DNA of 64,000 bases from a virus. Lineage: Duplodnaviria > Caudoviricetes. Below the pieces are notes generated by a model, which saw nothing but the letters and a program-made list of their open reading frames with translations, was not told the origin of the DNA and made no database searches. Below, in pieces: positions 8,356 to 62,283 of this stretch (positions are counted from its first letter, which is position 1; every line of letters starts with the position of its first letter). Made by a program: the position numbers and the translations under genes. The DNA lies in the IMG/VR virus record IMGVR_UViG_3300042542_006078; one strand, written 5' to 3'.

Positions 8356-8390
8356 AAACTGCTTCGGATTTCCGAGAAGCAAAGCCGATA
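8356..8390 (+). promoter_or_regulatory. 35-bp motif copy 1 (AAACTGCTTCGGA-N6-AGAAGCAAAGCCGATA)
   Basis: Full match, 68 nt upstream of the sigma-like ATG at 8459. Confidence 0.75.
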
Positions 8391-8458
8391 ATATGTTTGG
8401 TCGTCAGTCGCCGCCATCAGAAGCGTTGACTGACTTTAAGCTTAATGGAGTAAGGCTC

Positions 8459-9454
8459 ATGAACTTCAAGTCTTATAAGTATCGCAAGCTTAATGGTTTT
8501 GAAGAGAAGTTTGTTTGCAGCGTATTAAGTGATATCAATTCAATCATCAAAAAGTGGCATGGCATTTTCCCTAACATCAAGTTCGTCAAGGTAAAACAGC
8601 ATCTTTTCGATTCTCCTTCTGAATTACCTGTTGCCAATGATGCACACAGGGCTGAATTGGCGGCTGATGTTGAAATAATTGCTAATCTCCGACAGCCTCA
8701 CCAGCAGTTGGGAAATAGGACTGTTGATAATGCTGTTCTTGAAGGATACTGTGGTATAGTATATCACTTTGCCAGTAGTTGGTTCAAATCTGATATCAAT
8801 GGTATCACCAAGAATGACATCATGCAAGAGCTATACCTGAAGATCTGGGAAATCATGTACAGGTGGAATTCTGATCGTGGATCTTTGTCAACATTTATTT
8901 GGAAGAGTGTGCAGAATCGAATCTATACGGTTCTCAACACTCAAGGTCGCCCATTGGGTCATCTTCGCACAACCGGATTGTTGTTAATGGCCAAGTTTGA
9001 CAAATTAAGGAAGGCAATGCCTAATTCTGACACATCTGAGATTATTGATTCTATGGACCTGACTGCCAAAAAGAAGCAGCATCTTTTGGACATTCTTGCA
9101 TCAGTTAAACTCAATTCGCAAATGCAGAATTCTGGTCAGAATTCTGATTCTTATGGCGATGACTATTCAGTTCTTGGCAATATTCCCAAGAAAACCGAGA
9201 ACGATGAATTGACACAAAAAATTTATGTCAAAGACATACTTGACAAAAGTAATTTGACACTCAATGAAAGGAAACTTATTGATGCTTCCATGGAACCTTA
9301 TCATGGTTGGCAAACTGATATGGCCAGTAAAATCGTTTCCGAAAAAACAGGCAAGAAATACACTAAAATGAGAATCACGCAAATTCTGCAAAAAGCCAGA
9401 GAGAAGGTTGCTAATACAATTGAGCAGCAAAGAGCAGTTGAGAATGGAGTTTGA
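8459..9454 (+). CDS. Sigma70-family (FliA/SigB-like) sigma factor; the ORF-track extension to 8273 runs through the promoter motif
   Basis: SD GGAG before ATG 8459; region 2 KNDIMQELYLKIWE...RGSLSTFIWKSVQNRI; region 4 LTLNERKLI...YTKMRITQILQKAREKV. Confidence 0.7.
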   Translation: MNFKSYKYRKLNGFEEKFVCSVLSDINSIIKKWHGIFPNIKFVKVKQHLFDSPSELPVANDAHRAELAADVEIIANLRQPHQQLGNRTVDNAVLEGYCGIVYHFASSWFKSDINGITKNDIMQELYLKIWEIMYRWNSDRGSLSTFIWKSVQNRIYTVLNTQGRPLGHLRTTGLLLMAKFDKLRKAMPNSDTSEIIDSMDLTAKKKQHLLDILASVKLNSQMQNSGQNSDSYGDDYSVLGNIPKKTENDELTQKIYVKDILDKSNLTLNERKLIDASMEPYHGWQTDMASKIVSEKTGKKYTKMRITQILQKAREKVANTIEQQRAVENGV

Positions 9455-9558
9455 CAAATAATCGTCTTATCTTGTTAGGGCAGAAGATTTTACGATGGTT
9501 AACCAAAGAAGTATTTTGGTAAAGTTGATTTTGGTCATTCACCGAAAACTGTTACAAG

Positions 9559-10518
9559 ATGACAAGAAAGGCTTTCATGTCTTATAGCATCAGTAGTGTA
9601 GCTTCTTTCATGAAGTCGCAAAAAGAGCGGGAATTAGCCAAGGACAGTGATGATGCAGACTTAGGCCCTCATATCATTGTGGAGAAGGATGGCAACCCTG
9701 CTGCAATCTTTATTGCTCCCAAAACAACAGACAAAATTCAGGCTTGCAAAGCAGCCATGATGTGCAAGATAGGTTTTGACCCCGACAGCATTACTCTTGG
9801 TTTCGATGCTATCATTAGTAGTTTTGGAGATCAAAAAGTTGAAAAAGAATGTATAGTTTTGCAAAAGATCGACAAGGAAAATAAGATTGAAATGGCAACA
9901 ATGCCTTATGAAGTATATGGAGATAAACTTGTTTGGGACGAAGATTTACAACAGGAGTTGGATAATCCAATTGGTATTTTTGGAGATATAGCTGATAAGC
10001 TCATGGCAATTATGAATATCTCGACTGATCATGTTTCTGTTGAAGAAGTTCTTAATGGAGTTTTGTCAAAAGAAGAAATCAGCGAATTTAGTCGTGATAA
10101 GTTCGTGTTTTATACGAGTCGTGCCGCCATGGGATATCTAATGGGAATGGGCTTCAAAATTATTGATCTCATTTCCTATAAGCATCCCGAATGGACTGAC
10201 GCAAAAGAAAATGGAGAGAAAATACTGGACAAAATGGTTGAAGCAGAAATCATTTCTGAAGAACAAAAGAAAAAGCTTTTTGATATTGTGAAGAATCATG
10301 TCGGCACTATTGTTTTCAAGGAAAGATTTGAACATGAGCTTACCGTGGCTAAGTGCAAGTTGCCAAAGAAGATGAAAATCTTTACTTTTGTAAGCATTTT
10401 TGAGCAGATGTGTATCCAGCCAAAGGCAAATGAGTCTTTTATTGATTCTTTGAAAGTTAAAAGCGACAGTGATGATGACTATGATGATGACTATGATGAT
10501 GACTATGATGATGAGTGA
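9559..10518 (+). CDS. Hypothetical protein with acidic DDDY-repeat tail
   Basis: 319 aa ORF; 12-bp GATGATGACTAT x3 at the 3' end. Confidence 0.7.
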   Translation: MTRKAFMSYSISSVASFMKSQKERELAKDSDDADLGPHIIVEKDGNPAAIFIAPKTTDKIQACKAAMMCKIGFDPDSITLGFDAIISSFGDQKVEKECIVLQKIDKENKIEMATMPYEVYGDKLVWDEDLQQELDNPIGIFGDIADKLMAIMNISTDHVSVEEVLNGVLSKEEISEFSRDKFVFYTSRAAMGYLMGMGFKIIDLISYKHPEWTDAKENGEKILDKMVEAEIISEEQKKKLFDIVKNHVGTIVFKERFEHELTVAKCKLPKKMKIFTFVSIFEQMCIQPKANESFIDSLKVKSDSDDDYDDDYDDDYDDE

Positions 10519-10551
10519 CGAGTATTTGATTTCACTAAATGGAGACAAGAC

Positions 10552-10785
10552 ATGGACGAACTGAGCAAGGAAGTCTCAGATGTCATGTGCCGAAGACTTC
10601 AGATTGATAATATCGAGGATGAAAAGGATTGGGAACGAGAATTCCAATCCTTAGATAGTCTTGATTTGATTGATTTGATATTTGTCCTTGAGGATAATTT
10701 TCATGTAAAGTTTCCAGATAAAATTAAAAACGCATCTTTCAAAAATCTAGTTGAATTCATTGGCCTCAATCGTGTTGGTCGTTGA
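10552..10785 (+). CDS. Acyl carrier protein
   Basis: 77 aa, acidic, LDSLDLIDLIFVLEDNFHVKFPD phosphopantetheine attachment motif; SD GGAG. Confidence 0.8.
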   Translation: MDELSKEVSDVMCRRLQIDNIEDEKDWEREFQSLDSLDLIDLIFVLEDNFHVKFPDKIKNASFKNLVEFIGLNRVGR

Positions 10786-10878
10786 TTTTTGACCTTTATT
10801 TTTTTGAGTAGTTGGTGTACTTTTTGTTTGTGCCATAAATGTCAAGGTTGACCTCTGGCACTTTTTTTGGAGTCTGAA

Positions 10879-11163
10879 ATGAAGAATTTTTTCGCATTAG
10901 CCTCTCTTGCTCTGGTTGGATCATCCTTGGCTTTTGCTGGTGATGAGAAGGCTCAGGCATCCAAGGATCAGACTGCTGTTGTAGTAGTCGCCAAGCCATC
11001 CCGTTTTCGTGTTGTGGCAACTCCCGTCCAAGTCGTGAAGACTGAGTTGGTTGCAAAGACAAGTACGATTCCAGCAACTATGGTTGTTGAAGAGAGGAAG
11101 GGTCTTTTCGGAAAATGGAAGACCGTGAATAGCGCCATCGTCATTAAGGAAGGCGCAAAGTAA
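10879..11163 (+). CDS. Small exported protein with signal peptide
   Basis: MKNFFALASLALVGSSLAFA-G signal peptide; SD GGAG. Confidence 0.7.
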   Translation: MKNFFALASLALVGSSLAFAGDEKAQASKDQTAVVVVAKPSRFRVVATPVQVVKTELVAKTSTIPATMVVEERKGLFGKWKTVNSAIVIKEGAK

Positions 11164-11183
11164 AATTAATTTTTGTTCGACCT

Positions 11184-61767: not shown

Positions 61768-61800
61768 ACTGCTTCGGATTTCCTAGAAGCAAAGCCGATA
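61766..61800 (+). promoter_or_regulatory. 35-bp motif copy 12, 15 nt upstream of tRNA-Lys
   Basis: AAACTGCTTCGGATTTCCTAGAAGCAAAGCCGATA. Confidence 0.8.
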
Positions 61801-61815
61801 AGGTAGTGAATCAAA

Positions 61816-61889
61816 GACCTCGTAGCTCAGTCCGGTAGAGCAACGCACTTTTAATGCGTGGGTCTTGGGTTCAAATCCCAACGAGGTCA
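61816..61889 (+). tRNA. tRNA-Lys(UUU)
   Basis: GACCTCG/CGAGGTC acceptor, GCTC/GAGC D stem, ACGCA-CTTTTAA-TGCGT anticodon arm, TTGGG-TTCAAAT-CCCAA T arm; no encoded CCA. Confidence 0.95.
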
Positions 61890-61912
61890 TGTTCAGTTAA
61901 AAAGGGGGCAAT

Positions 61913-62194
61913 ATGACTGCTACTGCTACTAAGAAAGAACAGAAACAATTTAAGGAAATATCATCTGAAATTGTCATGAAAAACCTTCATGACAAGATTG
62001 GCATACCAGATAACTATAGTCACAGTCGTGGATTCAATGTCTATGACAACAGATGGCGCATCAATGTCTACTCATTAGTCAGGACAGATATCCCAACTCT
62101 TATCAAAAGGCTCTTTATCTCTAACAGCTACTTTGTTGAAGTTGATAAAGAAGGCCAAATAGTAAGGCCAAAAGAAATCCAAAAGATTAAGTAA
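61913..62194 (+). CDS. Hypothetical protein
   Basis: 93 aa; SD GGGGG. Confidence 0.7.
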   Translation: MTATATKKEQKQFKEISSEIVMKNLHDKIGIPDNYSHSRGFNVYDNRWRINVYSLVRTDIPTLIKRLFISNSYFVEVDKEGQIVRPKEIQKIK

Positions 62195-62197
62195 TAC

Positions 62198-62237
62198 AAA
62201 AGACAGGTGCAGCACAAAACTGCACCTGTCTTTTTTT
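62198..62237 (+). terminator. Intrinsic terminator
   Basis: AAAAGACAGGTGCAG/CTGCACCTGTCTTTT plus T run. Confidence 0.8.
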
Positions 62238-62248
62238 ATGCCCATTGA

Positions 62249-62283
62249 AAACTTCTTCGGAAAAGGAAGAAGTAAAGCCGATA
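62249..62283 (+). promoter_or_regulatory. 35-bp motif copy 13 (most divergent)
   Basis: AAACTTCTTCGGAAAAGGAAGAAGTAAAGCCGATA, right after a terminator and before SD AGGAGG. Confidence 0.7.

Follow-up and report, generated by a model that had tools for sequence, protein, structure and literature searches.

Phage-encoded sigma factors with promoter classes of their own have been described for Bacillus phage SPO1 (gp28 for middle and gp33/34 for late promoters) and for coliphage phiEco32 (gp36), and the pairing of phage sigmas with dedicated promoter classes is already well established as a general phenomenon. In these systems a lytic phage encodes a sigma70-family protein, and a uniform bipartite promoter of non-host type stands before one set of genes. 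In T4-type phages, cassettes consisting of a terminator and an early promoter (promoter early stem-loops, PeSLs) flank ORFan genes and mediate modular shuffling (PMC2839356, PMC4122927). Here we describe a 64,000-nt stretch of DNA from a member of the Caudoviricetes (IMG/VR record IMGVR_UViG_3300042542_006078), hereafter the window, in which a 35-nt motif is repeated many times and in which one copy precedes the gene of a sigma70-family protein of 331 amino acids (sigma-331, 8459..9454, plus strand). The best reading of the locus is that the motif constitutes a phage-sigma-dependent, non-late promoter class carried in PeSL-like terminator-promoter cassettes. It would differ from the SPO1 and phiEco32 systems in that its sigma family is known from metagenomes only, its consensus is new, the sigma gene itself lies under its own promoter class, and the system is known here from sequence.

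A scan of the window with the 35-nt pattern, in which at most three mismatches were allowed, gave 13 matches, all on the plus strand and exactly where a preliminary description of this DNA had placed them, while 100 dinucleotide shuffles gave none. The heptamer GCCGATA, which is present in 12 of the 13 copies and followed in most by A or T, occurs 16 times in the window against 1.96 expected. A looser scan (AAACT-N24-CCGA) recovered the same 13 copies only, with none between 11.5 and 48.6 kb, so the gap which had been reported in the distribution is real. Two IMG/VR contigs share the motif. The first, G001 (36.4 kb), is 99% identical to the window at 47.5–64 kb, runs approximately 20 kb past its end and has 28 exact core matches on one strand, extending ~17 kb beyond the window; the second, G002 (32.5 kb), overlaps the continuation of G001 and has 11 core matches, again all on a single strand. 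With the ~19 further copies located just beyond the window end on the 99%-identical contig, the total for the phage is about 32, of which three lie at 8.3–11.4 kb and the remainder in one block from 48.6 kb on, some 30 kb of small accessory genes.

Conservation was counted over 37 unique contexts of 105 nt each. Motif positions 1–5, 7–13, and 20–35 are essentially invariant, position 6 and its partner 25 being the only variable sites besides the central hexamer (positions 14–19). This hexamer had been said to vary freely; it is indeed variable, with 16 different versions in the 37 copies, but it is not random, being A/T-rich at its start and G/C-rich at its end. Downstream of the motif, TG was found at positions 42–43 in 33 of the contexts and G at position 43 in 34, and the conserved block thus exceeds 35 nt.

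Every copy stands before a co-oriented gene or the tRNA-Lys gene, and within the window the start codons, each preceded by a ribosome-binding site (RBS), follow the end of the motif by 18–68 nt, in agreement with what had been noted for single copies and for the last copies of pairs. The copy at 8356..8390 lies upstream of the sigma-331 gene (predicted transcription start 8398, ATG 8459). It is followed by a tandem pair, 11322..11356 (with a degenerate −10 element, GCCGAAT) and 11409..11443, in front of an SNF2 helicase gene which starts 59–62 nt after the second copy. The large block opens with the copy at 48646..48680 (ATG 48721) and continues with a tandem pair at 49059..49093 and 49134..49168, a single copy at 51156..51190 in which G6 is replaced by T, a further pair at 54183..54217 and 54255..54289 (ATG 54309), and single copies at 55992..56026 (upstream of a 482-aa gene, 56050–57498), 58560..58594 (upstream of a ThiF/E1-like gene), 61766..61800 and 62249..62283. 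The copy at 61766 ends 15 nt before tRNA-Lys(UUU) (61816–61889), as previously stated.

The packing of these elements is tight. At the last copy the order is a terminator (62198–62234, a strong hairpin and a run of T's), 14 nt, the motif, another 18 nt and the ATG at 62302, which leaves no room for another promoter; copies 11322/11409 and 54183 (the latter after a terminator at 54074–54103 and two copies of a second repeat, motif B, described below) also lie downstream of terminators. The RBS begins with position 43 at two copies, 54255 and 62249, and would be truncated by a start later than approximately position 44. The arrangement at 62249 and at the tRNA-Lys gene thus places the start site within about 10 nt of the motif end, and we predict it at the G conserved in position 43, which lies 8 nt downstream of GCCGATA.

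With +1 set at position 43, TTCGGA (positions 8–13) occupies −35 to −30 and CGATAw (positions 31–36, with C30 directly ahead) occupies −12 to −7, the two being separated by a 17-nt spacer of which the first 6 nt are variable, and the −10 element is followed by a 6-nt discriminator. AAACTG, often with more A's ahead of it, falls at −42 to −37; in Escherichia coli promoters the proximal UP-element subsite lies in this region. The position equivalent to the critical T-7 of sigma70 promoters is variable in the motif. Sigma70-consensus sites number 28 in the 48–64 kb region, which is below the expected 41.8 ± 7.5, and with 66 against 58.4 expected they are not enriched at 1–20 kb. The phage encodes a sigma70-family protein and has a uniform bipartite motif, distinct from the sigma70 consensus, at promoter distance before co-oriented genes. 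The proposal of the preliminary description that the copies form a promoter class is supported, as against a random repeat, by their position and orientation, by the terminator-motif-RBS packing, by the −35/17/−10/+1 geometry, by the adjoining sigma70-family gene and by a conserved counterpart before the orthologous sigma gene in related phages; the motif is very probably a promoter. The analysis shows the repeat with its placement and geometry, the fold of the sigma and the conservation among relatives, and from these we infer that the motif fires, where transcription would start and which protein would read it.

Two other readings of the sequence were considered and rejected. A sigma54 promoter (GG-N10-GC) has the spacing off by one, and on inspection the element is not present in the relatives. 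A T4 MotA box (TGCTTC resembling TGCTTtA) would stand 21 nt rather than ~12 nt from the −10 element, and the relatives are without TGCTT.

The motif had previously been attributed to a FliA-like sigma. The sigma28 promoter consensus consists of a −35 element TAAAGTTT, 11 nt and a −10 element GCCGATAA (PMC2859248). GCCGATA(A/T) agrees with the sigma28 −10 octamer in 7–8 of 8 positions, and a CGGA is located 15 nt ahead of GCCGATA, as had been pointed out. However, TAAAGTTT is absent 11 nt upstream of the octamer, where CGGANNNN (CGGA followed by variable bases) is found instead. The likeness is confined to the −10 octamer of this lineage, as the motif is without a TAAA −35 and five of seven relatives have CCGAGTA, and the phage sigma does not belong to the FliA family (see below), so that a FliA-like reader is not upheld. 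A host factor could nevertheless be involved, in the form of a sigma28/FliA-type protein, another alternative sigma, or sigma70 redirected in the manner of T4 AsiA/MotA. Such a factor would be present at infection and would account for the start of a class that includes the sigma gene, and the fit to the sigma28 octamer speaks for it; with CGGANNNN in place of the sigma28 −35, CCGAGTA in most relatives and a variable T-7 equivalent, this explanation is considered unlikely.

The favoured candidate is sigma-331. Its start coincides with that of a 62% identical homologue (P0002), and it matches TIGR02937 (4e-11) and PHROG 351 (5e-16). An exhaustive HMMER search identified 192 cluster representatives, nearly all of ~320 aa, and a protein search of IMG/VR with sigma-331 found no relatives. 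A profile built from 50 sequences of the family aligns over sigma2–sigma4 of the primary sigmas SigA/RpoD with a best E-value of 6e-11, compared with 1e-5 for FliA chains. The AlphaFold (AF2) model has a predicted local distance difference test (pLDDT) score of 90.6, and its best Foldseek superposition is on full-length sigmaA chains. By profile and model, sigma-331 is a complete sigma (sigma1.2–sigma4) which is closest to the primary sigmas and is not a member of the FliA family. Its N-terminus (MNFKSYKYRKL...) is conserved in the family and has only a loose likeness to MI[ST]FKxFLE tags encoded at locus L006, without an L/I-x-E site at the usual place. The latter occur on the minus strand at L006:4418–6509, right after the last motif copy, in converging genes whose products start with MITFKQFLES, MISFKLFLEN or MISFKKFLEN; these N-termini resemble the capsid-targeting sequences of T4.

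Contigs of eight members of the sigma-331 family were retrieved, and the sequences ahead of the orthologous sigma genes were aligned in one register across eight lineages. In the seven lineages besides that of the window the sigma is 33–41% identical, and each has its own version of the motif before the orthologous sigma gene, so that a motif of the respective class precedes the sigma gene in all eight. In the shared register an A-rich hexamer, which is AAACTG in three lineages, is separated by one base from TTnnnn (six of eight). After another 17 nt comes CGAnTA (six of eight), with C directly ahead of this −10 hexamer in seven of the eight lineages. Among the seven relatives the −10 region reads CCGAGTA in five, and CCGAATA also occurs. 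The family thus has in common the −10 element and the A-rich block upstream, and the −35 region and spacer are specific to each lineage. Locus L011 (sigma 41% identical) is syntenic with the window at 0.5–11.5 kb. Its version of the motif is present in three copies, of which one precedes the sigma gene and two stand in tandem ahead of the SNF2 helicase gene, exactly as in the window. In relative L016 a repeat search revealed no multi-copy promoter within 12 kb, and the degenerate pattern AAACTG-N23-CCGAGTAGTG gave single, apparently coding, chance matches only in IMG/VR.

The presence of a motif in front of a sigma factor's own gene across orthologues is the rule by which promoters are assigned to extracytoplasmic function (ECF) sigmas, and by this rule sigma-331 would be the reader of the motif. 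Autoregulated ECF sigmas likewise have their gene behind their own target promoter, conserved across orthologues. They differ in being two-domain proteins (sigma2 and sigma4), whereas sigma-331 has sigma1.2, sigma2, sigma3, and sigma4, and no anti-sigma partner is evident for sigma-331. On this evidence it is probable that a phage-encoded sigma reads the motif; that sigma-331 in particular does so is the favoured assignment, although one to which we would give somewhat less than an even chance. A conserved leader hairpin was also noted in three lineages whose sigmas are only 40–62% identical. It has the form GTGCCA...GTCAnGGTTGAC...TGGCAC and is located at 10830–10861 in the window, at L008:2332–2363 and at L016:4639–4672, in each case immediately ahead of the RBS of a gene for an orthologous product of ~95 aa.

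A number of points weigh against a promoter read by sigma-331. A sigma gene relying solely on its own promoter class needs another starter, and no sigma70-type promoter was found in front of the sigma-331 gene. The approximately 29 invariant positions exceed what a sigma usually needs, and another factor may also bind; the conserved AAACTG block lies outside the usual −35 position. None of the runs listed as holding the sequence is on record as RNA. A host alternative sigma would be another candidate reader, and the gene of a second sigma-like protein, being behind TGTATAAT and TATAAT boxes, could supply a reader made early. This account is weak on the start of the loop, and for this reason the second sigma and a host factor are serious rivals.

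This second protein, sigma-283 (1966..2817, minus strand), is more divergent and comprises a sigma2 domain and a C-terminal helix-turn-helix-like part. The TGTATAAT and TATAAT boxes are found at 2817–3360 and 3794–3836, upstream of the minus-strand operon which holds its gene, and suggest host-type (early) expression. Sigma-283 could accordingly be made early from host-type promoters and read the motif, with sigma-331 as a product of the class intended for a later step, an order of events comparable to the SPO1 cascade, in which gp28 is followed by gp33/34. The boxes would then solve the bootstrapping problem. The protein has a sigma2-level match only (PRK06759, 5e-7). Conservation and synteny extend to L011, whose orthologue is 58% identical, and to L015, and the top Foldseek neighbours of its model are all sigma factors, with E-values of ~1e-2. 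However, the best of these is 7e-3, the model reaches a pLDDT of just 70.5, a profile of three sigma-283 orthologues retrieved no sigma from the PDB, and the protein is apparently without a sigma3 domain. As the motif stands before the sigma-331 gene in eight lineages, the ECF rule points to sigma-331, and a sigma-283-read class is regarded as rather unlikely.

It had also been suggested that the TGCTTC/GAAGCA dyad within the motif may bind an activator or form a hairpin, as in the promoters of the N4 virion RNA polymerase. In this scheme the dyad would either extrude or serve as the site of a dimeric phage protein, the structure being recognized by an activator or a non-canonical polymerase. 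The dyad is present and its arms are nearly invariant within this phage, and the 29 invariant positions suggest more than one reader. However, folding of typical copies as single-stranded DNA yields no more than −4 to −5 kcal/mol (z-scores −1.0 to −1.4), and the motif versions of L011 and L014 have no dyad (z-scores +0.3). Pairing is broken in five of the six copies which vary at the pair 6/25, so that no compensatory change is seen, and the covariation score of an alignment including relatives was reached by 160 of 500 shuffles. Neither the window nor the 55 kb of related contigs sampled by Pfam showed a gene for a phage RNA polymerase. Copy 62249 is an oddity, with two changes creating an 8-bp stem in a shifted register (z-score −3.7), which could be counted in favour of a functional hairpin. 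A conserved hairpin as recognition element, as in N4-type promoters, is not supported here; the embedded hairpin looks incidental, and a functional dyad is highly improbable. The invariance of the arms is nevertheless real and still needs explanation; either a further factor binds there, or recombination among cassettes has caused concerted evolution.

Beyond the window (loci L005 and L006) the same series of elements was found before each small, unrelated open reading frame (ORF). It consists of an intrinsic terminator, TTGCCA-17-TACTCT with motif B (TTACGCACTTGTACTCT) in the spacer, an ACAGACA/TGTCTGT dyad, the 35-nt motif, TATGGGTGT, a CAA-rich leader, and finally GGAG and the ATG. Within the window, motif B (TTACGCACTTGTACTYT) has four copies against 0.21 expected, in direct or inverted pairs 40–120 nt upstream of some motif copies, namely a direct pair on the plus strand (48528/48580, spanning 48528..48596), 50–118 nt upstream of copy 48646, and an inverted pair (54122/54146, spanning 54122..54162) upstream of copy 54183. 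Motif B might function either as an operator or as a promoter of host type. Some cassettes also have a 9-nt complement upstream (CCCCTTTCC versus GGAAAGGGG), which follows the cassette subtype and is not general.

The cassettes bear on a further explanation, according to which the 35-nt motif is not a promoter and acts either as an RNA-level 5′-leader element (a processing site, operator or handle) or only as a recombination module, with transcripts arising at another site such as motif B. Beyond the window TTGCCA-17-TACTCT with motif B is located ~60 nt upstream and could give transcripts containing the motif, and strain-level swaps of cassettes do occur in this region. Most copies in the window, however, are without motif B, and copies 62249 and 11409 directly follow terminators. 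The inverted pairs of motif B fit a binding site better than a promoter, no RNA covariation was observed, and the copy before the tRNA gene would leave a 50-nt structured leader without an evident reason. This explanation is therefore very unlikely.

The two 99%-identical strains differ in this region, in line with such a shuffling role. A segment of ~1.4 kb (49.87–51.28 kb in the window), which includes copy 51156, is missing from G001, which in turn has an inserted segment of ~0.5–0.8 kb with its own motif copy (L003:709) and a different gene order. The break points, of which the junctions are approximate, fall in a four-copy terminator-leader repeat. This repeat is a terminator hairpin (GGGTGGCATAG...CTATGCCACCC with a T-run) at 49799–49840, 50430–50473, 51560–51601, and 51892–51933, and in each case an RBS and start codon follow within ~25 nt, with no promoter motif between. 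As a separate observation, an identical 26-nt hairpin occurs at 49180–49205 and 51202–51227, directly after copies 49134 and 51156 and in the predicted 5′ leader; the eight T's that follow the former suggest a terminator, an attenuator or a 5′ stabilizer.

The likeness to the PeSLs of T4-type phages lies in the terminator stem-loop and promoter cassettes which flank small ORFans in a hyperplastic region, and in the loss, gain and reordering of cassettes at repeated regulatory sequences between 99%-identical strains. PeSL promoters are sigma70-like early promoters, whereas the motif here has TTCGGA/CGATAw with a T-7 equivalent that is not conserved, and the cassettes add motif B and the ACAGACA/TGTCTGT dyad. 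No mini-circles or recombination products were observed. The idea of regulatory cassettes as gene-shuffling engines would in this way be extended to a promoter which is not host-like.

Taken as a phage-sigma promoter, the motif would work as follows. Host core RNA polymerase with sigma-331 would bind TTCGGA as −35 and CGATAw as −10 element across the 17-nt spacer, with AAACTG (approximately −42 to −37) acting as a UP-like or extended upstream contact, and the G conserved in position 43 would be the first transcribed base. The class would drive the sigma gene itself, forming a positive loop, together with the SNF2 helicase, the tRNA-Lys, a ubiquitin-like conjugation module, the S-adenosylmethionine (SAM) lyase and about thirty small ORFan genes. 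Promoter and terminators would be packaged as cassettes like those of T4-type phages.

The genes in the gap appear to be served by a different class. In the 4–44 kb region many genes have a TAAATAAT-like box 5–8 nt ahead of their ATG, with boxes at 4215–4229, 14040–14052, 28639–28655, 30409–30425, 43972–43986 and other sites, and genes with such a box include those at 4230, 14053, 26329–28638 (minus strand), 28741–30408 (minus strand), 36294 (minus strand), 37531 (minus strand) and 43987. These boxes look like a T4-late-type, nearly leaderless promoter class. That the genes at 4–44 kb which are without the motif carry TAAATAAT would account for the gap in the motif distribution, and as the late-like class is distinct, the 35-nt motif would represent a separate, non-late class.

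Knowledge of huge phages comes almost entirely from metagenomes, and the scheduling of their several hundred genes is largely obscure. The locus offers a readable regulon in this respect, with ~32 near-identical promoters and an adjoining candidate reader gene. Since both the sigma protein and the −35 region change among the related phages while the −10 element stays, their pairing can be tested in vitro without host culture, and the locus could supply orthogonal sigma/promoter pairs. A more far-reaching and tentative possibility is that the motif is one half of a self-contained orthogonal transcription system, in which a clade of huge lake phages combines the metagenome-only sigma family with a composite promoter of ~44 bp. 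The latter could consist of the upstream AAACTG, a lineage-specific −35, the C-CGAnTA −10 and a fixed start. In such a system the sigma and the −35 could co-evolve in each lineage, the promoter could double as a recombination module that shuffles ORFan cassettes between strains, the loop could be started by a virion-delivered sigma or by the second sigma, and the near-invariant arms in the spacer could bind a further phage factor.

The phage itself is uncultured and appears to be large, as the CheckV completeness of G001 and G002 (8 and 7%, respectively) corresponds to a genome of roughly 400–450 kb. The stretch at 48.6–58.6 kb is present in twenty lake-water DNA runs. No DNA match was found among INPHARED phage records to the regions at 8–14 kb (distant mode) or 48–64 kb (near mode). 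As a clue to the host, the MetK of the phage was uninformative, its nearest named matches being ~60% identical and spread over phyla. Recognized genes in the window encode the two sigma-like proteins, the SNF2 helicase, a RuvB/clamp-loader-like AAA+ protein, one tRNA-Lys, ThiF/E1 and JAB proteins, the SAM lyase, sugar-modifying enzymes and ankyrin repeats. The SAM lyase-family gene (61120–61767) belongs to the motif-driven block, and a full-length SAM synthetase is encoded beyond the window on G002 (L010:787–1914). Two genes with a head domain of the poly(A)-polymerase/CCA type were also noted (L009:3755–5224 and L010:3394–4614), as were five tandem paralogues of 247–250 aa with a family-2 glycosyltransferase domain at 32391–36238 in the window. 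Finally, the ~1.6 kb at 47040–48640 contain no ORF of at least 60 aa and are AT-rich and strand-asymmetric, with TCACAATTT-like repeats in the left half and the reverse complement TTGTGATTT in the right half. The flip is located near 47.86 kb, where the cumulative GC skew has its minimum and the minus-strand gene block meets the plus-strand block; this stretch may be an origin of replication or a control region for divergent transcription.

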